From IMG/VR virus record IMGVR_UViG_3300029305_001557, positions 1 to 64,000 of that record: a DNA stretch of 64,000 nucleotides, one strand, 5' to 3'. The notes below the pieces were generated by a model. It ran no database searches and had not been told where the DNA came from. It saw only the letters and a program-made list of their open reading frames with translations. How positions within the stretch are numbered: position 1 is the first letter of the stretch; the number at the start of each line of letters is the position of its first letter. Made by a program: the position numbers and the translations under genes. Positions 5,155 to 57,886 of the stretch are shown piece by piece. The DNA is from a virus (lineage: Duplodnaviria; Caudoviricetes).

Positions 5155-5718
5155 TTATCTTCTTGTTAAACGGTCAAGCAGGTCGTTGTACATTCTCTCA
5201 TACATAACAGCTTTAGCCGCCTTTTCTTTAATAGTTTCATTCGCTTCCTTAGCGATAGCAAGCTCTTTCATCGTACAGTCCAAACGGTATTTAAGCTCTT
5301 TAATTTGAGCGTCCTTATCGTCAGGAGTAGTTGAAGTACTTACAGGAGTATTACCGTCAAAGAGGTAGTCAACACCTAAAGAGATAGTAAGTGCTTTATC
5401 AACTGCGTCCATAATGTCATCAGGAAGTCGGCACATAAAGTCGCCAACACGCCCCTTAGAGATTGTGGTAATCTGTTCACAAAGAATAGTTGAATTGATA
5501 CACTGTCCTCTGTCAACTTTAATGTGAGTAGGTAACGGCTTCTTCTCCTGAAGAGTAAGATAGCAAATCTCCACGCATTCGCTGTGTTCATTGTTGAGGT
5601 TATTACTAACCACTACAGCAGGTCTACCACTTCTCTGCTCACTACCTACTGTGTCATACTTTGAGGTTATGTAGAAAACTTCGCCCCGATTGATAATTAA
5701 GTCATTCGCTGTGTTCAT
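5155..5718 (-). CDS. mazF: PemK/MazF-family endoribonuclease-like protein with C-terminal coiled-coil extension
   Basis: RGEVFY...GSEQRSGRPAVVVSNN...THIKV...ILCEQITTISK..V..L...MDAVDKALTISLG is the MazF signature. Confidence 0.88.
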   Translation of the reverse strand: MNTANDLIINRGEVFYITSKYDTVGSEQRSGRPAVVVSNNLNNEHSECVEICYLTLQEKKPLPTHIKVDRGQCINSTILCEQITTISKGRVGDFMCRLPDDIMDAVDKALTISLGVDYLFDGNTPVSTSTTPDDKDAQIKELKYRLDCTMKELAIAKEANETIKEKAAKAVMYERMYNDLLDRLTRR

Positions 5719-9470: not shown

Positions 9471-9991
9471 GTTTCACCTCCATACTCATACACTGTCGTG
9501 GTCTTACAAGGACTCTTAGCTCCTCTGATAGATACGCAGGTATGTGTTGCTACCATTCGTACACTTAAATATTCAGGGTCAATAACAGAAACAAGATACT
9601 CCCCAATTTCTGTAGTAAGTCTCTCCTGTAACTGTGGCTTCTTAGAGAAATAGTCAACTACTCTCGGGATTTTAGAAAGCCCGATAATTTTGTCTTTCGG
9701 GACATAAGTAACGACTACATTTCCCATAAAGGGAAGCCAATGGTGTTCACACGAACTGTTTACAGGTACTTCCACAGAGACAGGATTGTGATTTTCGGCA
9801 GGAAAGACCTTCATCTTAGCATTAAGCTCATTGAGGTGTCTGTTATTCCTGTTTCTAAATAACTCATTACAGTACATTTTCGCAACCCTGAGAGGAGTAT
9901 CTTTATTACTTTCTGTAATAGGAAGTCCAAGCAGGGAGGAAATAGCACTGATATGTCCTGCAATCTCTTTGATTAAATCTTTATCAGTCAC
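9467..9991 (-). CDS. folE: GTP cyclohydrolase I
   Basis: KDTPLRVAKMY, SSCEHHWLPF, IIGLSKIPRVVDYFSKKPQLQERLT, HTCVSIRG. Confidence 0.96.
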   Translation of the reverse strand: MTDKDLIKEIAGHISAISSLLGLPITESNKDTPLRVAKMYCNELFRNRNNRHLNELNAKMKVFPAENHNPVSVEVPVNSSCEHHWLPFMGNVVVTYVPKDKIIGLSKIPRVVDYFSKKPQLQERLTTEIGEYLVSVIDPEYLSVRMVATHTCVSIRGAKSPCKTTTVYEYGGET

Positions 9992-10013
9992 GGTTGTTCC
10001 TCCTCTCTTTGAT

Positions 10014-10244
10014 TTATCTCTTCATAGAACCTAACTTCATAATAGTAGCAGGGTTCTTTCTGCCGGGAATGGGTGGAGCGACTCTCTCACCTAAAGCGGC
10101 TTTACCTTGATTGATAGAGTCCTGAATACACTCTTTTGCTTTTCTCAGTCTTTCAGGGTCAGACTTGATTTTCTGATACCTTGCAATCGTCTCAGCGTCT
10201 TCTCTTGTCTCCCAATCGTACTGCTGTCTGTCTAAGTTCAACAT
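10014..10244 (-). CDS. Hypothetical phage protein (76 aa)
   Basis: AAAGGAG RBS; helical WETREDAETIARYQKI motif. Confidence 0.75.
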   Translation of the reverse strand: MLNLDRQQYDWETREDAETIARYQKIKSDPERLRKAKECIQDSINQGKAALGERVAPPIPGRKNPATIMKLGSMKR

Positions 10245-10266
10245 AGCACTTGTTCTCCTTTCTTCT

Positions 10267-10305
10267 AAAATGAAAACAACTCCGAGATAGCGAACTACCT
10301 CGGAG
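10267..10305 (-). terminator. Intrinsic terminator with UUCG loop after the 60-aa peptide gene
   Basis: CTCCGAG-GTAG-TTCG-CTAT-CTCGGAG followed by TTGTTTTCATTTT on the minus strand. Confidence 0.8.
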
Positions 10306-10326
10306 CGTTTGTGTCGAGGTTAGAGA

Positions 10327-10509
10327 TTATCTACCTCTTGTGGGACGGATTGTAGCTGCTCTACCACGAGTTCTGCCTGTAGCACCTAACGCAGATACAC
10401 CGTATCTACGGTAGTACTGAGACATAGAACGCATACCATTACCACGGGGCATACCCGCAGAAACAGTACCTCTGTTGCCAGCACCTCCGCTTGCGTAAGC
10501 CTTCATCAT
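10327..10509 (-). CDS. Small, highly basic Arg/Gly-rich peptide (60 aa, no Asp or Glu)
   Basis: Strong AAGGAGG RBS; has its own promoter and terminator; 11 Arg, 12 Gly. Confidence 0.8.
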   Translation of the reverse strand: MMKAYASGGAGNRGTVSAGMPRGNGMRSMSQYYRRYGVSALGATGRTRGRAATIRPTRGR

Positions 10510-10609
10510 TGACTTACACCTCCTTGCTTGTTAGACTATAGGAATGGGTGTTATAACGGCTATGTCCTACAAAACAAGCATAAACTTGGGACACAGCACC
10601 CTCCTACGC
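10510..10609 (-). promoter_or_regulatory. Structured 5' leader (nested hairpin) of the peptide gene
   Basis: TAGGAGGGTG/CACCCATTCCTA, GCTGTGTCC/GGACATAGC and CAAGT/GCTTG nested pairings. Confidence 0.55.
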
Positions 10610-10615
10610 ATTTAT

Positions 10616-10644
10616 AGTATAACCTATTTTGACCAAAAAAGCAA
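10616..10644 (-). promoter_or_regulatory. SigA-type promoter TTGCTT-17-TATACT
   Basis: Read directly. Confidence 0.6.
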
Positions 10645-10660
10645 GGGGTTTCGAGATAAA

Positions 10661-11428
10661 TTATTGAAATAAATTATTTTTAGGAAATTTCACACCTAAA
10701 TCTGTGAGTAAAGGGTCTTGCATATTGACAAGAGCGAACCCTTCTGCTCTACCTATACACGAGCTACAGTGGCAACAAGGAACATCTCCATTATTAAAAC
10801 ACGACCAACTCAGACTCATATTAGCCCCAACTTCAAGTCCTAACGAAATAATCTCGGGCTTTGATTTACTCATCAAGGGGGTAAGCACAGTAAACTTTCC
10901 GTTTAAGTGGTGCTTCATAACTGAACCCTCAGTTAAAGACTTAGCTACGGACTCTGCAAAGCGTGGGTGGGTGTCTACAAAACCGTCACGAGGTTTACCC
11001 AAAATGTTTTGACTACCATTTAGTCCTGTACAGATATATTTTATTTGTAAAGACTCAGCTAAAGACCCTGCTAAACCTAAAAGAATGTGGTTTCTTAAAG
11101 GGATATAGCTTTCGGGGTCTACAACTCCTCTTTTAATCTCTTCTACCCCTGTACTTCTAACTTCTCCTCCAACAATGGGGAGAGTCTTCAGCCAAGGAAG
11201 GTCAATACTAACACGGATAAGTTTGTGACCATAAAGGTCAGACATCTCTTGTGACATAGCCCATTCTTTTTCAAGAGCAGACTGTCCGTAGTCTACAAAG
11301 AGTTCTGTCACTTCAAATCCCGCCCAATGTAGTAATGCGTCACATACACAGGAGTCAAGACCTCCGCTTTGTAGTAGCACTACTTTCTTGTCGGGAAGAG
11401 CTTTGTATTTCTGCAATCTCTTCTCCAT
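10661..11428 (-). CDS. queC: 7-cyano-7-deazaguanine (preQ0) synthase
   Basis: VVLLQSGGLDS, VDYGQ, YIPLRNHIL, SWSCF, C(C)HCSSCIGR; no glutamine amidotransferase domain. Confidence 0.95.
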   Translation of the reverse strand: MEKRLQKYKALPDKKVVLLQSGGLDSCVCDALLHWAGFEVTELFVDYGQSALEKEWAMSQEMSDLYGHKLIRVSIDLPWLKTLPIVGGEVRSTGVEEIKRGVVDPESYIPLRNHILLGLAGSLAESLQIKYICTGLNGSQNILGKPRDGFVDTHPRFAESVAKSLTEGSVMKHHLNGKFTVLTPLMSKSKPEIISLGLEVGANMSLSWSCFNNGDVPCCHCSSCIGRAEGFALVNMQDPLLTDLGVKFPKNNLFQ

Positions 11429-11711
11429 TTGAATACTCCTTTTCTAACACAATTCGCAACTTATCTCTGTACTCCTTGTTATCACTTATACGAATAAGAC
11501 TAATAAGAAGATACCGAGATAAATGCTTTGGCACAATGCGACTATACGCTAACTTAGTGAGATATTTTGCCGTAGAAAACTTGGCAATATGGGTATGACC
11601 ATACTTAAAAGGTTTACGAGCATTAAGCACAACAAATCCGTTGCTGACTGCATACACTTTATAATGACGGTTACTGTACAGAGGTCTTCCCAAAGTTCCT
11701 AAACCAATCAA
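11355..11711 (-). CDS. Conserved hypothetical phage protein (GHTHI motif)
   Basis: KPFKYGHTHI...YLLISLIRIS resembles small Firmicutes phage proteins; start uncertain. Confidence 0.65.
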   Translation of the reverse strand: MIGLGTLGRPLYSNRHYKVYAVSNGFVVLNARKPFKYGHTHIAKFSTAKYLTKLAYSRIVPKHLSRYLLISLIRISDNKEYRDKLRIVLEKEYSNGEEIAEIQSSSRQESSATTKRRS

Positions 11712-12099
11712 AAGATAAATTGTACTTAGCCATTAACAGACTCTTCGCCATTTGCTCTAAAAGTGCGTGTTCGGAAATATCGTAATAAGCAACCTCAATA
11801 CTGTTGTAATCTCTCTCAACCCAATTATACTTACAGTGTAAAAGTTCGTGGATAAGGATTTCCTCAGCACAATACTTTAATATTCTGTCACCATAAAACT
11901 CGGGCTTTAAGATTTTAATAACACAGCTTTTCTGCTCAATACAAAAGATGTTCTCGCCACAAACTTCTTTTAAGTTCATATCGTCAGGCTCAACTAAGTT
12001 AATCTTTATAATCCAATCTTGCAGGAACAGTCTTTCCTGCCATTCTTGCAAGCACTTATATGCTTGCTCTATAGAGGTGAACTCCATAATAGGGGACAT
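11671..12099 (-). CDS. HExxH zinc-metallopeptidase-like protein
   Basis: EEILIHELLHC with a downstream Glu (EHALLE). Confidence 0.65.
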   Translation of the reverse strand: MSPIMEFTSIEQAYKCLQEWQERLFLQDWIIKINLVEPDDMNLKEVCGENIFCIEQKSCVIKILKPEFYGDRILKYCAEEILIHELLHCKYNWVERDYNSIEVAYYDISEHALLEQMAKSLLMAKYNLSFDWFRNFGKTSVQ

Positions 12100-12100
12100 A

Positions 12101-12739
12101 CTACTTCACTCCTATACATTTGTGCATTTGAATTTGAACCCTCGCATAGTAAAACTTGTCTTTAATAAGCCAATCAATTAACTGCTGTCCTATCATCGGC
12201 TTTCCTTTCTTGTCAAACATAGGGCTAAAAAGGATTTTTGCAGAAGTCGGATAAGACCGTAAAATTCTCTTTGCAAATTTATAGTCTTCCTCGTCTGCAA
12301 TGACAAACTTTACTTCATCGTGGGGCATTAAATTGCCGAGGTTGGTGAGGATATTTTTATCACTAACACCACTACTCGGGCATTTAATATCCATAACATA
12401 TTTATAGCTTCGGTTATAGCTACAGGGTTCTATAGGGACACAGCCGTTAGTTTCGATAGACACTTTGTACCCCTCACCTACAAGCTCGTAAATGACAGGG
12501 TAAACATCATCTTGAATTAAAGGCTCACCACCTGTAATACACACATAGGGGACACGGTATCTCTTTATCATCTGAATAAGGTTGCCGATAGATACCCTCT
12601 TGCGATTACAAGCTTTCTGAGGTTGGTCACAGTAGGTACATTTTACATTACACCCAAACAGTCTAACAAACACACAAGGGAGTCCTGCGTCAGTACTTTC
12701 TCCTTGTATGCTTACAAAGATTTCATCTAAGTATAACAT
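12101..12739 (-). CDS. queE: 7-carboxy-7-deazaguanine synthase (radical SAM)
   Basis: EIFVSIQGE, VFVRLFGCNVKCTYCD, ITGGEP, IETNG, DIKCPSSG; start set by the GGAGGTG RBS. Confidence 0.95.
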   Translation of the reverse strand: MLYLDEIFVSIQGESTDAGLPCVFVRLFGCNVKCTYCDQPQKACNRKRVSIGNLIQMIKRYRVPYVCITGGEPLIQDDVYPVIYELVGEGYKVSIETNGCVPIEPCSYNRSYKYVMDIKCPSSGVSDKNILTNLGNLMPHDEVKFVIADEEDYKFAKRILRSYPTSAKILFSPMFDKKGKPMIGQQLIDWLIKDKFYYARVQIQMHKCIGVK

Positions 12740-12743
12740 AAAC

Positions 12744-13106
12744 TCACCTCCTACATTCTGCAAAAGAACTTTCTGTCTCCCACAGTTTGACGGACTCTAA
12801 GGTAAGTCCCATATTAGAAAACTTATGGCTTAATTCTCTAAAAAAGCTCTGCACCATATTTTCTGCGGTAGGCTTCTTAAAGAAGTCATTGAGGTATTGG
12901 TGGTCATACCTGTTTACAATCTGCTCATTTACAACAGTCTTCAGAACTCCAAAGTCTACTATCATACCTGACATCTCATCAACAGAACCACTGACTGTTA
13001 CCTGTAATTTATATGAATGACCGTGAAGTCTATTACAAGCACCCTCATAATCAGGCAAGTGATGTGCCGCTTCAAAACCAAAGCATTTAGTAACGCTTAC
13101 TTTCAT
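12744..13106 (-). CDS. queD: 6-carboxy-5,6,7,8-tetrahydropterin synthase
   Basis: FEAAHHL...CNRLHGHSY...DFG...DHQYLN...PTAEN...LWET. Confidence 0.96.
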   Translation of the reverse strand: MKVSVTKCFGFEAAHHLPDYEGACNRLHGHSYKLQVTVSGSVDEMSGMIVDFGVLKTVVNEQIVNRYDHQYLNDFFKKPTAENMVQSFFRELSHKFSNMGLTLESVKLWETESSFAECRR

Positions 13107-13118
13107 AACAGCACCTCC

Positions 13119-13400
13119 TTACTGAATTACGATGTTTGCAATCATTACGGTCTTTTCTGTATCTTCGCCTTCAACAATCTCAGAAAAGCCCGGCTTGATT
13201 AACAAGTCTTTGCCCTTAGTGGCAAGTGTACCCCTCGCTACTGCGATACCCTTATACATCTGATTAACAGCAGAAGCACCGACAGCACGGACTTCTAAAG
13301 TGAACCCGTCTTCAATGCTCTTAACGATACTTCCGGCAAGCTGAGGAACAGGGGACTTGCCTGACACACGAATTTGCTTTACTTCTTTATTTACTGCCAT
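13119..13400 (-). CDS. spoVS: Stage V sporulation protein S homolog
   Basis: IRVSGKSPVPQLAGSI...EVRAVGASAVNQMYKGIAVARG...KPGF. Confidence 0.9.
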   Translation of the reverse strand: MAVNKEVKQIRVSGKSPVPQLAGSIVKSIEDGFTLEVRAVGASAVNQMYKGIAVARGTLATKGKDLLIKPGFSEIVEGEDTEKTVMIANIVIQ

Positions 13401-13758
13401 TGTCACACACTCCTTTCTTGTGAATAGTTAAAAGATATTGAGCCACAATTTTATCTCGTGAAACATAACCATACATACGACTGTCATAAGAATGGTCAGC
13501 ATTATCGCCCTCAAAAAAGAACTTGCCTGTAATGCTACTTATCTGAGTTAGACGCTTAATAACATACTTTTCTCCCACAGGTGGAGTGTAAATAAGCACA
13601 CTCCCTACTTTGTAGTCTTTAAGCAATCTACAGCCGAGAATTATGTCTCCGTCATTGAATGTGGGGTACATAGAGTCTCCGCACACTTGAATGACAGGAA
13701 AAGCATAAATTAAAAAGGCTATAACTAAAACGAGTATTGCAAGAACAAACCACAACAT
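13387..13758 (-). CDS. Signal peptidase I (S26 family), minimal form
   Basis: N-terminal TM helix, catalytic GDSM(YPT), VIKR, and GDN...SYDSRMYG. Confidence 0.9.
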   Translation of the reverse strand: MLWFVLAILVLVIAFLIYAFPVIQVCGDSMYPTFNDGDIILGCRLLKDYKVGSVLIYTPPVGEKYVIKRLTQISSITGKFFFEGDNADHSYDSRMYGYVSRDKIVAQYLLTIHKKGVCDNGSK

Positions 13759-13764
13759 AACTAC

Positions 13765-14214
13765 TCACCTTCCTCTTCTCTTAATGATAGAGTCTTTCGG
13801 CACAATTCTGAAGAAATCCTCTAAAGAGAGTGCTATGTAGTCTTTGGAAGTGCCGTGCTTATGAAAGATAACACACGGTACTTTACCTTTAGGACAATCA
13901 CTCTCAGCTTGTGCAAACCAAGCAGGAAGACTCCAAGTCTTTGCGTTCTTACATTCAATGTGGAGAACTAAATCCACATTCTCATCAAGGGCTACAATGT
14001 CACCTCTGAACTCATCGGCTTTAGTAGACTTCTTTGCAAAGCCGCCTGACTGTGGAGTACGAGTGAGTTCCTCGTCATAATGGTCTTTGAACTTTCTTGC
14101 AACTTCTCTTTCAAAGTTACTGCCTTTAGCTTTACTTCTTTTCCCGAGCTTCTTTCGTTGCTCTTTAGCTGACTCTAAGTTAGCTTCACCTTTAACTGTT
14201 ACTTTTAATGCCAC
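13765..14214 (-). CDS. Holliday junction resolvase (PD-(D/E)xK)
   Basis: SKAKGSNFEREVA...GDI...IECKN. Confidence 0.85.
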   Translation of the reverse strand: MALKVTVKGEANLESAKEQRKKLGKRSKAKGSNFEREVARKFKDHYDEELTRTPQSGGFAKKSTKADEFRGDIVALDENVDLVLHIECKNAKTWSLPAWFAQAESDCPKGKVPCVIFHKHGTSKDYIALSLEDFFRIVPKDSIIKRRGR

Positions 14215-15841: not shown

Positions 15842-16196
15842 TGCTATTTCCTCCTGCTTCTTCAAAGGGTATTCCACGACCACCCTCGTAATTTATGTGT
15901 TCAAGAATTTTCTCTTTTGTATATCGACCTTCAACAAGAAAATCAATAATCTTAAAGAGCTTATCAAAATCTCTGTCACAGCAGTCATTCCAAAGCATAT
16001 AAAGCTTTGCTCCGTAGATTTCAAGGGAGTCAAATACAAGAAGATACTTGACCACATCAATGTTCTTTTCAGCTTTCTTTAGAATACCACAAACACAGGT
16101 CATAGCACCGGGGTTGCCTTCACTAAGCTTGACAACAATGTCCTTGTTTGTATCTAAATGTGATAAACGATGAAAAGTAATTTTATAGTTATTCAT
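15834..16196 (-). CDS. Hypothetical protein (120 aa)
   Basis: Coupled ORF. Confidence 0.7.
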   Translation of the reverse strand: MNNYKITFHRLSHLDTNKDIVVKLSEGNPGAMTCVCGILKKAEKNIDVVKYLLVFDSLEIYGAKLYMLWNDCCDRDFDKLFKIIDFLVEGRYTKEKILEHINYEGGRGIPFEEAGGNSNG

Positions 16197-16750
16197 CAGC
16201 GTCCTCCTGTATTATATGCTCTTGACTCTTCGGCAAAATCACCTGTTCTTCGGGTCACTTCTCTACTGAGCATAAAGATAATGTCCTCGATATTAGCAAT
16301 GCTGATTTCAATAAGAGCGTACTTTTTCTTCATATCCACATACTCGTGGTAGTAGGGCTTAACCTGCTCATTAGCGTTGACAAGTCTATCCTTAGCTGTC
16401 TCACTCATTTTATCAAGAGAATATTTCCTATACACAGGGTCACTCACTTCAAAATAAGCTCGTCTTGCTTCCTCAACTAAAATGTCTGCTCTTCCTAACA
16501 AGGTTCTAAGATACACTTTCTGTTGTGTAAAGGCATTAAGGTACTCACCTAAATCCTTACTCGGCACATCAGTAATCTCGGCAGGAAGTGTTAAGAAGTC
16601 TTCCGCAATGTTTAATCTTCTCTCGTCAAAAAAGATTGCACCTTTCTTTTCTAAAGAAGCTTCCATTTTTTCAAGATAGGACTGTCTAATTGCTTTAGGG
16701 TCAATCTTTTCGCTTTTAGGTTCTACCTTAGTAGGCACATTAAATTTCAC
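16196..16750 (-). CDS. Hypothetical helical protein (184 aa)
   Basis: Coupled ORF with RBS. Confidence 0.75.
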   Translation of the reverse strand: MKFNVPTKVEPKSEKIDPKAIRQSYLEKMEASLEKKGAIFFDERRLNIAEDFLTLPAEITDVPSKDLGEYLNAFTQQKVYLRTLLGRADILVEEARRAYFEVSDPVYRKYSLDKMSETAKDRLVNANEQVKPYYHEYVDMKKKYALIEISIANIEDIIFMLSREVTRRTGDFAEESRAYNTGGR

Positions 16751-16768: not shown

Positions 16769-17674
16769 TTAGTTCCAACACTCGATAGCATAAGGACAGA
16801 AACGACATTCCATAGAAGACTTAGCTGTATAAGGTCGGGCAGGTACTTTTCCCTTCAGGACATACTCGTTAAGCTTTGCACAGTCCCCTAACACTTCGGT
16901 CATAACAGTCTGAGACTTTGCGTCCCGAGAGGAAACACAGTACTCTTTAAGCTCCTGATTGTCTTTATTCTCATAAAGGAAAATAACCTTAGTGATAGGA
17001 ACTTTTGTGTTCATCAAAATGGAGTCCATTTTATAGTGTAACTCACATTGAAACTGAATTTTCTCCTCACGAGTATGCTTACGACCACCTTTCAGGTGCT
17101 GATAGTGTTTTGCATACTCTTTCATAAGTTTAGCCTTATCTGCTTCAAAAGACTCAAAGTCAGGATAAAGCTCGTGCAACTCCTTGCGTCTCTCTTCGAC
17201 ACAATACACATAAGACAAACCTTGCTGTTTATGCTCTTCTTTTGCGTCTTTCAACTGAGAAAAACCGTTGGAGTTAATGGACTTAATTTCCAAAATAGCT
17301 TTCTCTACTTTAGAAATTGCAAGAAGACCGTCAGTATGACCTTGAATATTGTAATACTGATTAAGCACAGGAATTTCGTCCATAAGTAACATTCCCTGCT
17401 CAGCTAAATAAGCTTGCAGTCTTTCGTGAGTTTTTGTGCCGTTATCAAAAATACGGCGAGTACGAGCGTCAATAGCATTGCTATCTCTCTCAGCCTGTGT
17501 ACGAGCGTAAAAACGCTGTCTCAGGCATTTACCTATCTGTGAAGGGGCATTAACATCTATAGCTCTGTCATTGTCCTCTTCGTTAAGAGATAAAAGGTAT
17601 AAGTCAAGGTCTTTGATTATGTACCCTTCTCTCTTCATTGCATTAAATACACTTTTAAGTGCCACTTTGTTCAT
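16769..17674 (-). CDS. Cas4-like / PD-(D/E)xK exonuclease
   Basis: PSQIGKC, GTKTH, GHTDG, LEIKS and C-terminal CRFC-x5-C (4-Cys arrangement). Confidence 0.85.
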   Translation of the reverse strand: MNKVALKSVFNAMKREGYIIKDLDLYLLSLNEEDNDRAIDVNAPSQIGKCLRQRFYARTQAERDSNAIDARTRRIFDNGTKTHERLQAYLAEQGMLLMDEIPVLNQYYNIQGHTDGLLAISKVEKAILEIKSINSNGFSQLKDAKEEHKQQGLSYVYCVEERRKELHELYPDFESFEADKAKLMKEYAKHYQHLKGGRKHTREEKIQFQCELHYKMDSILMNTKVPITKVIFLYENKDNQELKEYCVSSRDAKSQTVMTEVLGDCAKLNEYVLKGKVPARPYTAKSSMECRFCPYAIECWN

Positions 17675-25045: not shown

Positions 25046-26369
25046 CTCCTATCACATTATCTGCTTCGACAGGCTGACCGTCATCGGTGAAATTAGTGTC
25101 ATTAGTCTCAGCGTATATCTCAGAGAAATCCATTACATCAAAGTTCCAATTCATCATAACTTTACCTGTAACACCCTCACGCTGTTTTAACACTTTCAAA
25201 CACATTTCTCTATCACTCAGCATAACCTCATCTCTATACAGAGCGAGAATATCATCAGAGTCTTGACCAATAGCTTGTGTATACATAATAGACCCTAATT
25301 CGGGACCCGTCTTCTTAGAAGTATTCTTGTCTGCCTGAGTGTTAATAAAAATCGGGATTTTACACCTCTTCGCTAACTTCTTCAGGTCTCGGGTAATATG
25401 AGCTACACGCAACCAATCATCTTTAGCCCCTTGGTCATCTTCCATAAGGTAAACACCGTCAATAAGCACTACATCAGGCTTATGCTTGTCTATCTCAGCA
25501 GAAACACCCATAACACCGCTTGCTGTAGCAATAATTAAAGGCTCACAATTCGGCAGGTCATTCTCCAAGAACTCAAAATAACTCTTTTCTTGTTCAAGAG
25601 ATAAAGTGCCGCTTTTGAAAGCATTATAATTAAGCTCACCGTACATCATACTAAAGAGCATAGCTTCGTAACGGTCTCTCATAATATCCTCACTCATCTC
25701 AGTCACGAACTGTAACACTTTACAATTCTGAAGCTGACAATAAGCACCTATAAGAATTTCAAACCAAGTTTTACCTACACCTGTATTAGCAATAAGGGTA
25801 GTCAAAGTCTCTTTCTTCAAGCCCTTCGTTATATAGTCAAGGTGTTTAATACCGTAGGGAAGACCAAGCATACCTTTAGTCTCTTTTTTCTTCTTATAAG
25901 CTTCAATACGGTCTTCCGTATTTTTAGTAATATCACAAGAGGTCTGCTCTTCAACCTCACTCTCTATGTAGGCAATTTCTTTTTTCAAAAGAGAATAAGC
26001 GGTGTCCGTGTCAAAATCTTCAATCTTCTTGACAACCTCTTCCATAACTTCAGCTAAAGAATTATGCTTAACTTTCTTTCGTAGCTCATTGCACCAAAAC
26101 TTAATATTCTCTTCTGTGCCTACTACTTCAACACCGTCTCTGACAACAGTTTCAAGGTCATAATTCGGGAATTTTCTTTCAAAAACCCGAACAGTGGGAA
26201 CTTCACCGTCAGAAAGAACAGAGTCATATATAAATTGGAAAGCTCGTCTATGCTCCCCTGAAAAATATGTAGCTTTTATCTGAGCGTCTTTAATGCTAAG
26301 AATATCCTTAGTTTCAAGAAGCTTCGATATAAGCCCACACTCGACATTAAAAGGTTTATTGCCTGCCAT
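25029..26369 (-). CDS. dnaB: DnaB-like replicative helicase
   Basis: ANTGVGKT, TEMS, VLIDGVYLM, QDSD, KQREG. Confidence 0.93.
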   Translation of the reverse strand: MAGNKPFNVECGLISKLLETKDILSIKDAQIKATYFSGEHRRAFQFIYDSVLSDGEVPTVRVFERKFPNYDLETVVRDGVEVVGTEENIKFWCNELRKKVKHNSLAEVMEEVVKKIEDFDTDTAYSLLKKEIAYIESEVEEQTSCDITKNTEDRIEAYKKKKETKGMLGLPYGIKHLDYITKGLKKETLTTLIANTGVGKTWFEILIGAYCQLQNCKVLQFVTEMSEDIMRDRYEAMLFSMMYGELNYNAFKSGTLSLEQEKSYFEFLENDLPNCEPLIIATASGVMGVSAEIDKHKPDVVLIDGVYLMEDDQGAKDDWLRVAHITRDLKKLAKRCKIPIFINTQADKNTSKKTGPELGSIMYTQAIGQDSDDILALYRDEVMLSDREMCLKVLKQREGVTGKVMMNWNFDVMDFSEIYAETNDTNFTDDGQPVEADNVIGVDEIE

Positions 26370-26796
26370 TTTGAGACCTCCTTACATACTCATTTAATCG
26401 GCTTAAAGGGATTGCGTAAGAGCTATTGATAATGCTCCTGCGATAATCGTCTTCATCTACATATAAGGTAATATCACCTATAAGCAAACGCTGACTTATC
26501 TGAATGTCCTTTTCAACAACAACTATGCGACTAAAAGGTAGGTCTTCTAAGATATGTTTCATTTCCTCGGTATAATTCTCTCTGAGAACAACGAGGTCTA
26601 CCACATATTCAGTATGACGATAAAAGTACTCCATTGCACTTCGATATGTAGGGTCTATCTCTGCTCGGGATAGTTTACCTATAATGGCATTAAGTATTTT
26701 ATTCTTTACTCCTTCAGTCTTGTAGCGGATAAGGCTGTCTTCACAACGAAACGCTATAACCTTACCTACAGTGTTAGCTAAATCTCCGTGTCTCAT
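26356..26796 (-). CDS. Hypothetical protein (degenerate HAD-like)
   Basis: Coupled ORF in the replication operon. Confidence 0.7.
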   Translation of the reverse strand: MRHGDLANTVGKVIAFRCEDSLIRYKTEGVKNKILNAIIGKLSRAEIDPTYRSAMEYFYRHTEYVVDLVVLRENYTEEMKHILEDLPFSRIVVVEKDIQISQRLLIGDITLYVDEDDYRRSIINSSYAIPLSRLNEYVRRSQNGRQ

Positions 26797-26798
26797 AG

Positions 26799-27437
26799 CT
26801 ACACCTTCTTATCGTAATACTCTTTACGCTTGTCTATGCCCTCAATTTTTATTGGGGTCATATTTCCCTTCAAAAGAGAAGCGACACTTGCACCGTAACG
26901 ACTCTCAATATCTTTCGGGGATAAATTGGTACAGATAACAGTAACAAGCCCATTATCTTCTCTATACCTCAAAAGGTCTTCAAGGATAGGAGCTGACGCT
27001 TTGGAGTCTACTTCTTTTCCCACTTCTTCAAGAACAAGAAACTCCACAGCTTTGTAGTTATTAAAGAGGTCATCTTCTGCCGACTCTTTCTCATCAATAC
27101 TTCTCGCACTCCATACGAGCGTGTATCGAGACATATAGTCTACAAAAGTTACTCTCCGAGTAGAATAACGGTGCTTGTACGCTTCTTTAGCAACAATACA
27201 CGCTATCAAAGTCTTACCAACACCATTACTTCCAAATAAACACAATCCACCTAATTTGTCAAGAGACTGCCACCTCATATTAGAAATATAACGAGCAATG
27301 CAATCCTGCACTTCTTCAAGGTCGGAACTACCATAAGTCTTAAAGTTCTCTATAGTAACTTCGTGAAACTTTTTAGGAATACCAATAAGACTCAAACTTT
27401 TTGGGGATAGATATTTTCTCTCCGGTCTCATTCCCAA
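26799..27437 (-). CDS. DnaC/IstB-like ATPase (helicase loader)
   Basis: GSNGVGKT, FLVLEEVGKE, TVICTNL. Confidence 0.88.
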   Translation of the reverse strand: MGMRPERKYLSPKSLSLIGIPKKFHEVTIENFKTYGSSDLEEVQDCIARYISNMRWQSLDKLGGLCLFGSNGVGKTLIACIVAKEAYKHRYSTRRVTFVDYMSRYTLVWSARSIDEKESAEDDLFNNYKAVEFLVLEEVGKEVDSKASAPILEDLLRYREDNGLVTVICTNLSPKDIESRYGASVASLLKGNMTPIKIEGIDKRKEYYDKKV

Positions 27438-28015
27438 TCACCTACTTTCGCTTTATCAGTAGTTGTATCTCCTGACCACTCTCTCGTTACTTTCTGCTTT
27501 ACAGGTCGCACAGTCGGGTCATACTCATCATTAGCCCACAAAATACTGTCTCTATAAATTGTATTACACCAAGTACTTGATAAAACTGTGGGCTGAGTTA
27601 TATTTTTATCCAAGTAGTTCTGTTCACTGCAAAAGATAAACTCTATCATTAAGCAGATTTCCCTCGGCTCGTAATCAGTCTGCAACTTTTTGAAGATACC
27701 CAAATCTCTCTTCATATTTGCAATAACATATTTAACCCCTACTTCTCTTGCTTTCTCTCTGAAAAAGTACATCAAATCGTGGGTAGTAAAGCTGTCTACC
27801 GTATTCTCAATATCTTCATACTTTTTAAGAAAGGAAGAATACCTGTCTGAAGATACATTGCGTTTTCTACTCTCAGCATAGCCTGTCTTAAAAGGCTTTC
27901 GAGACTTATCCACACTTTCCACAGACTTTTCCACAGGGGTGACTAAACACTGTTTTCGGGACTCACGAAACGAATTAGCTAAGTCCATAACACTTTGTTT
28001 TCTCACGCTTTTCAC
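27428..28015 (-). CDS. Hypothetical protein, candidate replication initiator
   Basis: First gene of the loader-helicase-primase operon; contains DnaA-box-like 9-mers at 27906-27935. Confidence 0.65.
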   Translation of the reverse strand: MKSVRKQSVMDLANSFRESRKQCLVTPVEKSVESVDKSRKPFKTGYAESRKRNVSSDRYSSFLKKYEDIENTVDSFTTHDLMYFFREKAREVGVKYVIANMKRDLGIFKKLQTDYEPREICLMIEFIFCSEQNYLDKNITQPTVLSSTWCNTIYRDSILWANDEYDPTVRPVKQKVTREWSGDTTTDKAKVGDWE

Positions 28016-49366: not shown

Positions 49367-49798
49367 TTAGTCTAAGAAGTACTCGAACTGTAATGTCAGC
49401 TTTTCAATAGCCACATCATCAGAGGAAGCGTCTAAATCAGAACCCTCCCACTTGCTTACCCAAGCTTCTGCAAGCTTATAGGTACGCTTTGTATTACCAA
49501 AGCGGTCAAGAATTTCAATGATGACAGTATTACGGAGATTAGAGTCCGTAAGCACTTTCTTATACTGAGCTTCAAGTTCTTTTGTAGCATAAGAACCTCT
49601 TTCGAGGGTAACTTCACCGACTTTTTCTCTGCCGGGGAGTTTATGAGTGTACTGATAGAGACCCTCTAAGTACTCAACAACACCTACTTCTCTTGTCAAG
49701 CCACCGACTTTCTGAAAGCCTAAACCTGTAGGAAGCCCCGGTACTGTTACACGAAACATAAACTTCTGTAAAGGGTCATTAGCAATAGTTCTTGCCAT
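49367..49798 (-). CDS. Tail tube protein (T4 gp19-like)
   Basis: DPLQKFMFRV...GF..V.GL..E....EY.EG...KLPG...VTLERG...AWVSKW...L. Confidence 0.92.
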   Translation of the reverse strand: MARTIANDPLQKFMFRVTVPGLPTGLGFQKVGGLTREVGVVEYLEGLYQYTHKLPGREKVGEVTLERGSYATKELEAQYKKVLTDSNLRNTVIIEILDRFGNTKRTYKLAEAWVSKWEGSDLDASSDDVAIEKLTLQFEYFLD

Positions 49799-51660: not shown

Positions 51661-52236
51661 TTAATCACCGTCACTTTCTTCGTTGACTTTGACATCAGGA
51701 GTATAAGTGACCATAGGAACAACATTCTGTACTCTTTCATCAAGCTCTACCTGTACTTTGTAAGTGCCAAAGCTGTGAAAAAGTCTTCTGCCATTCTGCA
51801 TTAAATCAGACTTGTTAAAATCATTTCGGGACAGAACAAAACAGCTTCTTGCTATATCCGACATATCAGACACATCAAGATTAAACCAAGACTTTGAAAA
51901 AGCCTTCCACTGTCTTGTCATACTGTTCATATCTGTTTGAAGTGTCGCCCAAAAGTCTATCTGATAAAATAAGTCAAACGGAAGAGCAGAGTCTTCTAAA
52001 ACAAGTGAATTAGCTTCCTCATTCTTAGAAACGACAATAGGCTCAGAACTATATCTTATCTTAGAAAACCTGTCGTAAAGGTTATATATCGAGACTAAAG
52101 GGTAGTCCTCAGTATTAAAATCTTCATCAGGTTTTCTTATAACAACTTTGACAGGCTTTCCGTCAATCTGAATGACTCTCTGTAACAGCTTCTTAAATGC
52201 AATATCGACTTGCTCAAACCATACACTCTCACTCAT
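51661..52236 (-). CDS. Tail terminator/completion protein
   Basis: Neck position; YPLVSIY...FDLFYQIDFW. Confidence 0.65.
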   Translation of the reverse strand: MSESVWFEQVDIAFKKLLQRVIQIDGKPVKVVIRKPDEDFNTEDYPLVSIYNLYDRFSKIRYSSEPIVVSKNEEANSLVLEDSALPFDLFYQIDFWATLQTDMNSMTRQWKAFSKSWFNLDVSDMSDIARSCFVLSRNDFNKSDLMQNGRRLFHSFGTYKVQVELDERVQNVVPMVTYTPDVKVNEESDGD

Positions 52237-52726: not shown

Positions 52727-53178
52727 CGCCTTACTTTAGGCTTCTCACAATAGAAGACATAAAATTGAAAGACATCATCAATGTTTACGATAGGTCTGAC
52801 CTGAACAATATTGTAGTCAACACCTTTGTAGCTAATCGCACCTTTCTTCAAGGTCTCATAGTTCTCAGGTGTAATATCTACATTCTTATCCAAAAGACTC
52901 TTTGTAGGAATGGTGGCTGTTACATAGTCCTGTATTCCTTCAACAACTTGTTCGCCCTGTTCCATAGAAAGAGCAAACTTGCCGACAAGCTGTATAGGGT
53001 CAAGGTAATTCTTTTGCGTTGTCTCCTCGTACACATTGGTGTCAGTGGAGTCCTCATCTAAGAGCTTTAAGAAGATTTGATTTGTCATCAAAGTAGAGTA
53101 CACTTCATAAATGCCCTCTAAAAACTCTTCATTAAGTCTCTTCTGAGCCACTGTCTTCACCTCCTGTAGTGGAAACAA
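52723..53178 (-). CDS. Head closure/stopper protein; start probably a GTG near 53157
   Basis: Position after the adaptor gene. Confidence 0.6.
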   Translation of the reverse strand: MFPLQEVKTVAQKRLNEEFLEGIYEVYSTLMTNQIFLKLLDEDSTDTNVYEETTQKNYLDPIQLVGKFALSMEQGEQVVEGIQDYVTATIPTKSLLDKNVDITPENYETLKKGAISYKGVDYNIVQVRPIVNIDDVFQFYVFYCEKPKVRR

Positions 53179-53923
53179 TCAATTCTGCTCTTCCGACAAG
53201 TGAAGATTTCTCAGTTGCAGACACCATTATATGATAAACGGTATCAGGGAGTAACCCTTCAATGCGACATTTATTTTGATGAACATTGGTTATCTTCGCC
53301 ACGAGCTTCGCTTTAGGCGAAATTTGCTCCGTAATAGCAAACTCATCATAAATTTGCTCATCGGAAACATAAACCTCATATTTATCAAAACGACTGAGCT
53401 GAACAGACCAAGACAGTTCAACTGTAGTATCTGTAACACCCACAACACGCAAAGAAAGGACAGGGACTCTTCCTTTCTCGTAATTCCGTCTTGTCGCATA
53501 TCTATCTGAGATAAGAACATCATACGAGGTTAGAGTGTTACGAGTCCCTGCCCCTCCGTCTTCATTGTATTGGTTATACTCATCATCAACAGCCGCTATG
53601 AGCTTCATATAATGCTCAAAGCGTTGACTCCTCTTGATTTGGTTGTTGTTATCAGCAGTCAAATCAATAAGAGGAGCGTCCATAGAAGCAAGTGTGTAAT
53701 ACAACTCTTTCTTCGCCAATAGGACAACAGGATAGATGTCCTCTGTGGGAATTAAATCGAGAGAGGGGACTTGTGGGAAGTCCCTCGTCAGAACGACATT
53801 CAGGTATAACTCAATGTCCTCGTCAGTCATACTCAGATAAGCGGTGTCTGTAACATCAGCATTTTGAATGTTGATATTTAACCTTAAATATCTAACAAGC
53901 TCAGCCTTAGTCATACTGAACAC
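53132..53923 (-). CDS. Head-tail adaptor with C-terminal FN3-like domain
   Basis: Helical N-terminal half; TDTTVELSW...LLPDTVYHI.VSA. Confidence 0.65.
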   Translation of the reverse strand: MFSMTKAELVRYLRLNINIQNADVTDTAYLSMTDEDIELYLNVVLTRDFPQVPSLDLIPTEDIYPVVLLAKKELYYTLASMDAPLIDLTADNNNQIKRSQRFEHYMKLIAAVDDEYNQYNEDGGAGTRNTLTSYDVLISDRYATRRNYEKGRVPVLSLRVVGVTDTTVELSWSVQLSRFDKYEVYVSDEQIYDEFAITEQISPKAKLVAKITNVHQNKCRIEGLLPDTVYHIMVSATEKSSLVGRAELIVSTTGGEDSGSEET

Positions 53924-54388: not shown

Positions 54389-55408
54389 TTACGCAGTTTC
54401 GATAACTACACCGTACTCATCGTGGAGTCTGCCGACACCGAAGATTGCGTACCAAGCTAAGCTTCTCTTTCTACCGAAGTCTTCAACACCGTTGTCACGG
54501 AGTTCAACAGGTAAGGAAAAAGCAATACCGAAGTATGCGTCACCAAAGATAACTGCCTGATATACATTGGTATCAGCAGGAGCACCGTCAGCACCTGCCT
54601 TTAACTCTGCAACGAAAGCAGGGTCAGTAGCCGCACAAGCACCGTTACACATTAAAGTGGTCTCGATGAAACGAGTGTCATCAATTCTACCAATCTCGCC
54701 TGTGAATAACTGCTCGGGGGCACCATAGTTGCTTGCGTTAATCCAAGCACTGTCATCTCTCAAATCACGAGACTGATGAGGGTGTACAAAACAAATCCAA
54801 TTAGTATTCGCATACTTAGGAGCATTGTTTGTAGCAAGGATTTCAATAGCGTCCTTAATGGTAGCTACATCTAACTTATCGTTAGCAGTAAGGTTAGCTC
54901 TGCTTGCCTTACCACCTGCATAAACGATAAATGCAGTATTGCCTAAAGCGGCATCTCTTAACTCGCAGTCAACGACCATAGCATAGTCACGACCTAACAA
55001 GGTTGTGGTGGAAGCCATAATGTCATCGAAAGAAGACTGAATGAGTAACTCAGAAGCGGCAACCGCATTACCGTACTCCTGTACAGTAATCTGCTTAGTA
55101 GAACCACTTAATGCCTGAGTTGTCATAGAAGTCATCTCAGTTAAAGCACCACCTAAAGCAAGGTTGTCATAGGTGAGCATAGAAATAGTTAAGCCCGGTT
55201 CTGTGCCTAACTCTGTCTTAACAGTGGCGAACTGGAAAAATCTCATAACAGGGAGAGCCTTAAACTCAATCTCCTTAGAGTAAACCATTCTCACTGCGTC
55301 TGTGAACTTAACATTATCCCCGCCATTAACTACGGCAGTAGAGGTAGCCGCATAAGCACGGAGAGCGAAGGACTTAAAAACAGCCTTCAAAGAATTTTTC
55401 TTATTCAT
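54389..55408 (-). CDS. Major capsid protein (N4-gp56-like family)
   Basis: VYSKEI...FFQFA...G.LTE...EYGNAV...HP.Q..DL...GEIG..D..RFIET. Confidence 0.9.
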   Translation of the reverse strand: MNKKNSLKAVFKSFALRAYAATSTAVVNGGDNVKFTDAVRMVYSKEIEFKALPVMRFFQFATVKTELGTEPGLTISMLTYDNLALGGALTEMTSMTTQALSGSTKQITVQEYGNAVAASELLIQSSFDDIMASTTTLLGRDYAMVVDCELRDAALGNTAFIVYAGGKASRANLTANDKLDVATIKDAIEILATNNAPKYANTNWICFVHPHQSRDLRDDSAWINASNYGAPEQLFTGEIGRIDDTRFIETTLMCNGACAATDPAFVAELKAGADGAPADTNVYQAVIFGDAYFGIAFSLPVELRDNGVEDFGRKRSLAWYAIFGVGRLHDEYGVVIETA

Positions 55409-55440
55409 TTGGAATAACCTCCTAAATTTATTGTGGTCTT

Positions 55441-56247
55441 TTATCTAAGACCCATTTTCTTACGGAACTCTGCGTATTCAGGGGAGCGAGGGTCTAAACT
55501 CTGAACATAGTCCATATCAAACTTCTCGTCCTCTTCAGTACTCGGGTTAGCTACAGGGGGAGTAGTGGACTTCTTAGTGTCCTTCTTATCTTCCTTCTTA
55601 GAAGTAGTCTTCTTTGTTTCGACAGGATTGCCGTCCTCGTCAATAAGACCTAACTGCTTCTTTGTAGCAACAGTCTTTTCAACTGCCTTATCAAACGAAG
55701 CGTCAATCTCTTCTTTAGTAGCACCCTTAACTTCATCTGCAAAAACAGAAAGGATTTGTTCAGCACCTTCACTGAGCTTAGTCTGACGGTAAAGCTTTAC
55801 CTCATACTCTGCTTCAATCTTGGCTCTTAACTCTTCCTCCTTAGGAGTAGTCTCTTTGAGGGTCTTAATCTCAGCCTGTGCTGTTTCAAGCTGTGCTTTA
55901 AGGTCTTTAACGACCTGACTCTCACCATTGTTAGCTTTAAGCTCATCAAGTTCTTTCTGAGCAGTAGCCAACTTCATAAGATTGTCATTGTTGGTCTGCA
56001 CGAGTGCCTTGTTCTCGTCCTCCAACTTTTTAATGCGAGGATAAAGTTTCTCTTTCTCCTCCTTACGGGCATTTGCAATCAAAGTCTCGAAGTTAATCTG
56101 TGGGGAATTATCTCCGCTACCTCCATTGTCTCCTGCACCGTTGTCTCCCTCATCAGCAAAAGCTCTTAAAAGGAGACCTCTGTAAAGACCTCTCTGCTTG
56201 CTTAAATCGGTAGACTGTTTTGCGATAAAACCACTTTTTGTAAACAT
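55441..56247 (-). CDS. Capsid scaffolding protein
   Basis: Between portal and MCP; coiled coil, acidic; start set by the GGAGG RBS at MFTKSG. Confidence 0.8.
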   Translation of the reverse strand: MFTKSGFIAKQSTDLSKQRGLYRGLLLRAFADEGDNGAGDNGGSGDNSPQINFETLIANARKEEKEKLYPRIKKLEDENKALVQTNNDNLMKLATAQKELDELKANNGESQVVKDLKAQLETAQAEIKTLKETTPKEEELRAKIEAEYEVKLYRQTKLSEGAEQILSVFADEVKGATKEEIDASFDKAVEKTVATKKQLGLIDEDGNPVETKKTTSKKEDKKDTKKSTTPPVANPSTEEDEKFDMDYVQSLDPRSPEYAEFRKKMGLR

Positions 56248-56281: not shown

Positions 56282-56310
56282 ATTATATCACCACTTTGAA
56301 AATAAATCAA
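56282..56310 (-). promoter_or_regulatory. SigA-type promoter TTGATT-17-TATAAT driving scaffold and capsid
   Basis: Read directly. Confidence 0.7.
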
Positions 56311-56350: not shown

Positions 56351-57886
56351 TTATTCTGCTCCTCCATTTTGACCTGTAGTCTCTACTCTGACTTGCTCAA
56401 TAGAGGTCTGACCGTTAGTCATACCACTGTTTAACTGAGCGTCATTGGGGTAGTGTCTCGGGTCATTGGGGTCAGAGTGACCATAGAAACAGGGGTTCTT
56501 TTCTAAGTCTGTGTCAATCTCAGTTAAAAGAGTATCAATATTTTCTTTGCCTACTCTCTTAGCCGCATTTTTACGAGACTCAATACCCATTTTCATTTCT
56601 TGCTGAATTTGCTGTAACTCTAACAGCATATCCTTCGGTAAGGTATCAGGAATAGAACACTCATTGTAGTAGAAATCCCTGTTAGTGACATCAGCAGGTT
56701 TTGTGATAAGTCCTTCCAATAAAGACACTAAAAGGACTAACTTATTCACTTCTTCAAGACCGTTCTCGGTGTTCATTCTCTTCACCCTCGTCTTTTCAAT
56801 AAGGGGTAAATTGATATACTGTAGAGCAACACCACTTGTGTTACTAATTGCTTGTGCTCCACCTAATACGGTCTCAGGCACACCACCTACTTCACACATC
56901 TGAAGCTTCAGATTTGCAATATGGGACTGACTTGCTCCTAAGTCACCTTTTAATTCAAGGTTCTCAACACGAGCGTCTTTTGCAAGACCACCCCACATCT
57001 TATTAGCACCTTTTTCAAGATTACCAACCTTAGCACCGTATACAATAGTAATCGGGGCGGCGTGATAGTCAATAATCTCCGATACATTAGACTCTTTAAG
57101 ATTTAACTCCACATTAAGAGGAATGATGTCATCGAGGTCACTGAAGCCCTCATTTCTTCCTGCAATAGTTAAATTCTTAATAAGGACAAAGGGAATAATT
57201 CCGTACTTATTCGGGAACTTCTCTTCTTTACCGTCATCTATGACTACGCACTCGTCATCAGTCCAAATCTGTTTATAAAGAACTTGCTTCTTAGTACTTC
57301 TGCCTAAGATACCTGTACGCACGATTTTCTCATAAGAGTACATAATTGTGACCCTTGTAAGACGGTCTCTGTCGTGAGGGTCAAACTCAGGGAATATCAC
57401 ACTTGACGGAATGAGCATAATTCTAACTCGTCCTTGTGGGTACTCATTGTAGGGGTCTCTCAACTCTGAGGGCTTAAAGTAGCGTACTTGTAACCACGCT
57501 TCACCTGTTACAGACTTCATCTGACCTAAATCAGTAGTAAGCTTGTATTGGTCGTTGTCTTCCCACACATCTTCAAGATACTCAAAAGCTGTTCTTCCGT
57601 CAGGGGTAATAGTAGCTTTCTCCATAGCTTTATGTGTAGACATAGTAAAAGACTTACCTAACTCAAATGCAACAAACTTATTTACAAAAGTTCGGCAGTA
57701 GTTAATAGTAAGTTCAGGGGTGTCCTGTTCGGGCATTTCTTCCCAATGGTAGCCCTCATAGAAGTTCCACGCTCTCTTCATTCTCTTCAAGCGTTCTATT
57801 TGCTTATTATCAAGCTCACCTTGAACTCCTATAAGGCTCGTATTAAAATAATCGTCAAAGTCTCTGCGTCTTTCAAAACCAATCAT
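56351..57886 (-). CDS. Portal protein (SPP1 gp6-like)
   Basis: WNFYEG, INYC, G.IPFV.I.N, SDLDDIIPL, SGVAL. Confidence 0.9.
   Translation of the reverse strand: MIGFERRRDFDDYFNTSLIGVQGELDNKQIERLKRMKRAWNFYEGYHWEEMPEQDTPELTINYCRTFVNKFVAFELGKSFTMSTHKAMEKATITPDGRTAFEYLEDVWEDNDQYKLTTDLGQMKSVTGEAWLQVRYFKPSELRDPYNEYPQGRVRIMLIPSSVIFPEFDPHDRDRLTRVTIMYSYEKIVRTGILGRSTKKQVLYKQIWTDDECVVIDDGKEEKFPNKYGIIPFVLIKNLTIAGRNEGFSDLDDIIPLNVELNLKESNVSEIIDYHAAPITIVYGAKVGNLEKGANKMWGGLAKDARVENLELKGDLGASQSHIANLKLQMCEVGGVPETVLGGAQAISNTSGVALQYINLPLIEKTRVKRMNTENGLEEVNKLVLLVSLLEGLITKPADVTNRDFYYNECSIPDTLPKDMLLELQQIQQEMKMGIESRKNAAKRVGKENIDTLLTEIDTDLEKNPCFYGHSDPNDPRHYPNDAQLNSGMTNGQTSIEQVRVETTGQNGGAE

Follow-up and report, generated by a model that had tools for sequence, protein, structure and literature searches.

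A complete tailed-phage genome of 76,395 bp with direct terminal repeats, the IMG/VR virus record IMGVR_UViG_3300029305_001557, was analyzed over its first 64 kb (positions 1 to 64,000, hereafter the window) for a short N-terminal leader shared by the major capsid protein (MCP), the scaffold protein and a 60-residue basic peptide. The leader ends as small-x-Ala in all three proteins and is found across a clade of related phages, and the phage's own miniature S26 peptidase probably removes it by cutting after the last Ala, a reading drawn from sequence comparison. The initial annotation had pointed out the motif LRAYA at residues 16–20 of the MCP, LRAFA at residues 27–31 of the scaffold and MKAYA at residues 2–6 of the peptide, and all three are present as it gave them; its suggestion that a small-x-Ala leader is processed by the S26 enzyme is carried forward here, whereas the HExxH protein that it named as an alternative is rejected.

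In the mechanism that we propose, the motifs would be the C-terminal ends of N-terminal propeptides, of 20 residues on the MCP, 31 on the scaffold and six on the peptide, and in relatives of the phage on the tail tube protein as well. The leader end reads hydrophobic residue, Lys/Arg, Ala or Val, any residue, Ala, and the S26 peptidase would cut behind the last Ala; its catalytic domain would reach substrates in the cytoplasm, and the basic peptide would finally associate with the DNA once packaged or with the particle during assembly.

Leaders on the capsid, scaffold and basic peptide

The MCP (339 residues; 54389–55408, minus strand) matches the Pfam families Phage_capsid_3/4 (PF13252, PF25209) and scores 141.5 bits against the NCBIfam model TIGR04387 (cut-off 60), which places it in the N4-gp56 family. 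Its nearest cultured relative is the MCP of Bacillus cereus phage BCD7, and the alignment of the two, at 57% identity, begins only at residue 21. The preceding 20 residues (55349–55408, minus strand) form the capsid leader, with LRAYA at nucleotides 55349–55363, and the mature MCP is predicted to start at residue 21 with the N-terminus ATSTAVV.

The scaffold gene (55441–56247, minus strand) is the only gene between the portal gene and the MCP gene, in line with the earlier statement that no prohead protease is encoded there. Its 268-residue product is 32% identical to BCD7 gp101 and has no match in Pfam, PHROG or NCBIfam. The ATG at 56247 follows a GGAGGT ribosome-binding site at a distance of 8 nt and was preferred to the unlikely start of a longer, TTG-started open reading frame (ORF). 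Counted from this ATG, the leader comprises residues 1–31 (56155–56247, minus strand) and ends in LRAFA (nucleotides 56155–56169), followed directly by Asp-Glu; the predicted N-terminus of the mature scaffold is DEGDNG.

The third protein is a Gly/Arg/Ser-rich peptide of 60 residues with an isoelectric point of 12 (10327–10509, minus strand), encoded far from the head genes. Its leader occupies residues 1–6, with MKAYA at nucleotides 10492–10506, and would leave a mature peptide beginning SGGAGN. The Protein Atlas gave no lead for it. A strong AAGGAGG site precedes the gene, which lies behind a 151-bp upstream gap (window 10279–10660, minus strand), and a terminator-like hairpin follows just past the stop codon (10279–10306, minus strand; 12-bp stem with six G-C pairs, then a T run), of a kind found in shuffled sequence at a mean of 0.3 sites. 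The gene thus looks like a transcription unit of its own inside a DNA-modification cluster.

The three sites stand out from the rest of the genome. When the motif pattern was loosened and the whole 76,395 bp were scanned in six frames, seven matches were obtained, and the three that fall in real genes are the three N-terminal sites. A position matrix covering residues −5 to +1 relative to the leader end was then built from the capsid and scaffold leaders only, leaving the peptide out of the training; it gave 18.0 bits for the MCP, 17.6 for the scaffold and 13.3 for the peptide, a level reached by no other ORF of the genome, and the control, 594 windows internal to proteins, had its maximum at 12.8 bits and its 99th percentile at 7.9.

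Conservation of the motif across homologous capsids and scaffolds had been proposed as a check, and it is borne out. A set of 163 MCP homologs at 57–99% identity yielded 121 distinct leader ends, all of which have Ala at −1. Position −3 is Ala in 105, Val in 15 and Glu in one, so that the ends follow the small-x-Ala (−3,−1) rule, as the A-x-A reading of the initial annotation implied; position −2 is free, with Tyr in 38, His in 34, Phe in 32 and Ser, Asn, Lys, Arg, Leu or Gln in the other 17. Further upstream, Lys or Arg fills −4 in 92 of the 121 and Leu, Met, Ile or Val fills −5 in 109, while +1 is mostly Ala, Asp or Glu. The scaffolds of about 45 relatives agree: a matrix trained only on the MCP ends selects a single site in each, always with Asp or Glu at +1 and in most with Glu at +2. 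Leader ends of unrelated proteins also resemble each other more within a genome than between genomes (P = 0.0002; genome labels permuted within protein classes), and in BCD7 five proteins share a leader end of the form Asn/Thr-Val-x-Ala.

The MCP relatives at 52% identity or less, Streptomyces phage BRock and Bacteroides phage BS162P1 have no leader, and these leaderless capsid proteins start about where residues 21–23 of the present MCP lie; the leader is therefore an add-on of one clade. That clade is a large one of BCD7-like contractile-tailed phages of Bacillota and neighboring phyla, and the shared motif closes a genuine N-terminal leader, common to the whole clade and distinct from the motif that the host protease Prp recognizes in ribosomal protein L27. 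Leaders among the relatives have a median length of 19 residues. An uncharged run of at least 12 residues occurs in 14 of 93 of their capsid leaders, the longest such run in the present capsid leader being four; the leaders are mostly not of the Sec type, and export is therefore unlikely as their role.

The N-termini of all ORFs in nine whole genomes were scanned with the −5 to +1 matrix for further clients. Each of the eight whole relatives examined, among them BCD7, encodes a positional ortholog of the basic peptide between queC and folE, with a leader end that resembles those of the capsid and scaffold of the same genome; this upholds the earlier inclusion of the peptide in the leader set. 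Small basic proteins rich in Gly, Ser, Arg and Asn and bearing a short leader occur once or twice per relative, except in two (G008 and G019), and BCD7 has two of them in tandem. Among 16 sequence homologs of the peptide, 14 keep the A-Y-A end after a lead-in of three or four residues, which is not always Met/Leu-Lys/Arg, and two are leaderless and start directly with Met-Ala-Ser. BCD7 also encodes a 114-residue protein (L149:16078–16422, minus strand), just downstream of its SpoVS and S26 genes, whose 14-residue leader ends in Ala-His-Ala, with Glu-Glu next; this protein is a possible additional client, without counterpart in the window.

The tail tube protein indicates the register of the cut. 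In the present phage it is leaderless (49367–49798, minus strand; PHROG tail tube, 4.5e-26), whereas alignment shows that the tail tubes of five closer relatives and of BCD7 have a leader of 10–17 residues ending in small-x-Ala. After its Met, the leaderless protein begins at the very residue that follows small-x-Ala in four of the orthologs (Ala-Arg-Thr in both). Because this tail tube and the leaderless capsids start at or near +1, a boundary after the Ala is favored over one before it. This position would be where an S26-type enzyme cuts, one residue later than the Phe|Ala cut of a Prp-type enzyme.

The leaders could instead stay uncut, as a tag common to these proteins that serves in folding, chaperone binding, targeting to the membrane or co-assembly. 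From its sequence, the capsid leader is predicted to be amphipathic, and in staphylococcal phage 80alpha assembly requires the scaffold leader but not its removal (PMC5744158). Ala without exception at −1, a small residue at −3 and no constraint at −2 are, however, what marks a cleavage site and not a binding helix, and a leader of six residues, as on the peptide, is too short for a targeting helix. Natural leaderless versions also exist of the tail tube (in this phage), of the peptide (two homologs) and of the capsid (distant relatives), which shows that the mature proteins work without the tag; we regard retention of the leaders as very unlikely.

The miniature S26 peptidase and rival enzymes

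The candidate leader peptidase is a miniature Ser/Lys peptidase of the S26 (signal peptidase I-like) family, 123 residues long and with an N-terminal hydrophobic helix (13387–13758, minus strand). It matches Pfam PF10502 (1.8e-13; 51.2 bits against a threshold of 22.9) and TIGR02227 (62.2 bits, cut-off 47), also touches PF00717, and in a profile search of the PDB finds a solved signal peptidase I at 9.5e-17. All catalytic boxes are present: the Ser in G-x-S-M-x-P, the Lys in K-R, then GDN and S-x-DSR. Ser29, Lys68, Gly84-Asp85-Asn86, Ser90, Asp92 and Arg94 are invariant both in a set of 14 and in a set of 45 homologs, and Ser93, in the S-x-DSR box, is invariant in the 14 and conserved in at least 90% of the 45, which span 112–148 residues. 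The AlphaFold model (predicted local distance difference test score, pLDDT, 91) consists of one N-terminal helix and a clan SF core, and its best Foldseek matches are SipA (4n31; TM-score 0.69), SpsB (4wvh), SEC11, LepB and the C-domains of LexA. The protein also aligns over its full length with TIGR02754, the model of the nickel superoxide dismutase (NiSOD) maturation protease SodX, at 4e-12; its 46.4 bits lie below the cut-off of 63.25, which rules it out as a SodX equivalog and leaves a likeness of working principle, not of membership.

Co-occurrence of peptidase genes with the motif had been named as a further check, and the S26 gene, with its catalytic dyad intact, was found in every leader-bearing relative whose record covers the region. 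This genome, 10 IMG/VR relatives and BCD7 all encode the short S26, as does every one of the four metagenome-assembled genome (MAG) bins with leader-bearing relatives; in two of the bins it is inferred to sit on a contig bearing the same number as the one with the capsid locus. Six leaderless relatives lack it, among them two that are 90–100% complete. Ten leader-bearing fragments without S26 were rejected as counter-examples: the adjacent core gene RusA is missing from them too, so the region simply lies off these fragments. Among 50,697 phage records a tblastn search found an S26 homolog in BCD7 only and so yielded no second lineage that would replicate the co-occurrence; the gene is one of about 36 of the 116 that BLAST recovers in at least seven of the eight whole relatives.

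S26 peptidases follow the (−3,−1) rule, by which P1 and P3 are fixed as small residues while P2 may vary, and the cytoplasmic S24 enzymes, which are related to S26, likewise cut after Ala. With −1 and −3 small and −2 free, the leader ends fit S26 specificity. The candidate substrates (capsid, scaffold, tail tube and basic peptide) differ from exported preproteins with their n-, h- and c-regions, of which they share only the c-region rule; the peptide leader has six residues in all, and the uncharged run of the capsid leader is of four. Together with the leaders, their conservation, the intact enzyme and its co-occurrence with them, this makes the phage's own S26 the probable agent of the proposed cleavage after small-x-Ala.

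Several observations weigh against this assignment. The helix of the S26 protein is predicted at residues 2–19 without a charged N-terminal flank, and among 77 close homologs the 15 residues behind it are net acidic (44 Lys/Arg vs 226 Asp/Glu); in distant homologs these residues do carry Lys/Arg. Such an acidic flank, as read from sequence, would not favor a catalytic domain that faces the cytoplasm, and a domain that faced outward could not reach the capsid proteins. A reversed charge bias of the anchor, which a count on 14 diverse sequences had suggested, was dropped when the 77 close homologs disagreed. Leader and S26 are moreover confined to one clade that shares many other genes, and their correlation probably goes back to a single evolutionary event, so the co-occurrence is suggestive and not a statistical proof. 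Finally, −2 is aromatic or His in 86% of the leader ends, with a hydrophobic residue four places earlier, which loosely recalls the Prp site Leu-Gln-Phe-Phe|Ala, and the capsid leader of one relative (G017) is clearly L27-like, ending in NLQTFA.

The last two points belong to the main rival, which is a serious one even if we think it unlikely. Under it the leaders are substrates of the host's L27 protease Prp, which would cut ahead of the Ala, directly after the −2 residue, as it does in 80alpha, and S26 would serve otherwise. The clade infects phyla that contain Prp (BCD7 grows on Bacillus cereus, and the MAG bins are of Clostridia, Bacillota and Thermosipho), and Prp is encoded next to a long L27 in three of the four bins, the binning of the phage contigs being uncertain. 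Tyr, Phe or His predominates at −2 with the Ala behind it invariant, NLQTFA in G017 is almost the L27 motif, and the capsid and scaffold of 80alpha share a host-cut leader while a tail protein of phi13 bears the same motif (PMC5744158). Against this, the candidate hosts have canonical L27 leaders, ending in IQLFA, whereas the phage leaders in the same bins end quite differently. Prp is reported to recognize its own L27 motif, MLxx(D/N)LQ(F/L)F'A, with high specificity, the Clostridioides difficile enzyme leaving the Staphylococcus aureus peptide uncut (PMC9405229). About 14% of the distinct capsid leader ends would place Ser, Asn, Lys, Arg, Leu or Gln at P1, and the register of the leaderless orthologs favors a cut after the Ala. 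One bin (G027) also counts against Prp, with a leaderless L27 and no Prp match, its assignment being weak and its GC content merely compatible.

Two observations on individual genomes may be recorded beside this. In G017 (loci L041 and L042) the capsid body is 67% identical to that of the present phage and the first 40 or so residues, including the NLQTFA end, are different; leaders of the clade's own type remain on its scaffold, tail tube and basic peptide, and S26 is retained. The capsid N-terminus of this relative looks like a swapped module. The G027 bin (L111) is a Clostridia MAG with an 86-kb relative of the phage; an L27 without N-terminal extension and without a Prp match would be unusual for the class, if the contigs are binned correctly.

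A different enzyme altogether, either an unrecognized phage protease or a host peptidase of small-x-Ala specificity (for example, the host type I signal peptidase acting on membrane-associated precursors), is a quite improbable alternative in our view. Core ORFs without family match, at 16196–16750, 26356–26796, 27428–28015 and 51661–52236, could hold such a protease, and the 14 capsid leaders with long uncharged runs resemble true signal peptides; these unannotated ORFs, however, show no protease-like signature, most leaders are not Sec-type, those of the scaffold and peptide have no hydrophobic core, and the export of capsid subunits is incompatible with assembly in the cytoplasm. Searches for known families were negative within their ranges: S78, S77 and ClpP gave no match at E up to 1 anywhere in the complete genome, no Prp family match exists in it either, no head-maturation-protease PHROG was found among about 40 ORFs screened, and PHROG and Pfam screens of about 45 ORFs returned no peptidase besides S26.

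The HExxH protein (11671–12099, minus strand), proposed initially as the other possible processing enzyme, does not qualify. It occurs in only four of 19 relatives, is absent from BCD7, and is missing from three complete leader-bearing genomes; it has no match in Pfam, PHROG or NCBIfam and is SprT-like at best. As a separate observation, the gene of this 142-residue protein is flanked by queC and queE, the Atlas clusters closest to the protein are viral and annotated as 'SprT-like' (score 0.96), and the gene sits in the 7-deazaguanine DNA-modification cluster beside the transglycosylase DpdA; given that location, a role in removing protein-DNA adducts is conceivable.

Returning to the S26 peptidase, a wider proposal can be put forward tentatively, as possible rather than established: the miniature signal peptidase may represent a new class of virion maturation protease that works on the cytoplasmic side, perhaps at the membrane, and trims the capsid, scaffold, tail tube and a protamine-like peptide, the last of which, encoded in the 7-deazaguanine cluster, might be packaged with the genome or condense it.

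Gene layout and neighboring features

Nearly all genes of the window lie on the minus strand. The head module runs from the large terminase through an SPP1-type portal (56351–57886), the scaffold and the MCP to the neck and contractile-tail genes. Directly upstream of the scaffold gene a promoter-like element (TTGATT, a 17-nt spacer and TG-n-TATAAT; window 56282–56310, minus strand) suggests late-gene transcription through a sigma factor of the host type. A 263-residue protein encoded two genes downstream of the MCP (53132–53923, minus strand) contains a fibronectin type III domain.

The S26 gene and the peptide gene belong to one conserved block (window 7380–14214, minus strand) whose order, RusA, S26, SpoVS, QueD, QueE, QueC, basic peptide, FolE and DpdA, is largely kept through to BCD7; some relatives lack single genes or have them displaced. 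The SpoVS-family gene (13119–13406, minus strand; Pfam PF04232, 8.8e-19) overlaps the end of the S26 gene; it is a core gene, found in seven of the eight whole relatives and overlaps or abuts S26 in most. Its presence, together with the sources of the relatives, points to a host in the Bacillota. Elsewhere in the window are a MazF-like growth inhibitor (5155–5718, minus strand; PHROG 2.4e-35) and a Cas4-domain exonuclease (16769–17674, minus strand; 7.7e-37).

Comparison with known systems

Tailed phages trim their head proteins by means of a few prohead protease families or, in 80alpha, through the host Prp. Full-text literature searches found no description of a phage signal peptidase in capsid maturation, and the trimming of small-x-Ala leaders in a tailed phage is apparently undescribed so far. 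If the proposal is true, virion maturation would gain a new protease family, and a clan SF enzyme would be seen to act in trans on cytoplasmic clients, as SodX does on NiSOD; the proposal would also explain why a clade of phages of spore-forming and gut Bacillota retains S26. The leader would further serve as a sequence tag that predicts particle proteins, flagging a tiny basic protein that no annotation would tie to the virion, and since BCD7 is in culture, each step is directly testable.

The closest parallel in substrate choice is the 80alpha/Prp system (C108; PMC5744158, PMC9405229), which likewise places a short N-terminal leader on capsid and scaffold and possibly on tail proteins. Both cases concern phages of Firmicutes without a prohead protease of their own, and in both the protease acts, or in the present case would act, outside the prohead. 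Unlike in 80alpha, the motif described here does not copy the host L27 leader (LRAYA, LRAFA and MKAYA vs IQLFA); it has fixed positions at −1 and −3 and no invariant Phe at P1, and the cut would fall after the Ala and not before it. The phage also brings its own, unrelated peptidase, of the Ser/Lys type of clan SF and not a Cys/His enzyme, and a small basic peptide is tagged in addition.

In T4, the capsid, the scaffold core and the small internal proteins accompanying the DNA all bear one motif, recognized by the prohead protease gp21. The present leader is similarly shared by capsid, scaffold and a small protein, and the idea of the peptide as a head component follows the T4 model. The motif is a different one, however, and there is no S77 match; in the relatives the tail tube is tagged too, which would be out of reach for a protease confined to the prohead.

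With the S24 repressors (LexA, lambda CI, UmuD) the phage enzyme shares the Ser/Lys chemistry of clan SF, and these are cytoplasmic and cut after Ala; they differ in that they cut themselves and have no membrane helix. Type I signal peptidases (LepB, SipS, SpsB; MEROPS S26) provide the fold, the Ser/Lys motifs, the N-terminal membrane helix and the small-x-Ala rule, whereas the present enzyme is encoded by a phage, measures 112–148 residues among its homologs and is proposed to act on cytoplasmic tailed-phage clients, by way of leaders that mostly lack a hydrophobic core. The classical viral client of host signal peptidase is the procoat of filamentous phages.

NiSOD is a cytoplasmic enzyme. 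SodX, its S26-type maturation protease, trims an N-terminal leader from SodN (PMC3919588, PMC8346466). SodX resembles what is proposed for the phage enzyme, a miniature S26 dedicated to the short N-terminal leaders of specific, non-secreted clients, although the clients in the phage would be virion proteins and not SodN. SodX is a precedent for a miniature S26 peptidase with dedicated clients that are not secreted.

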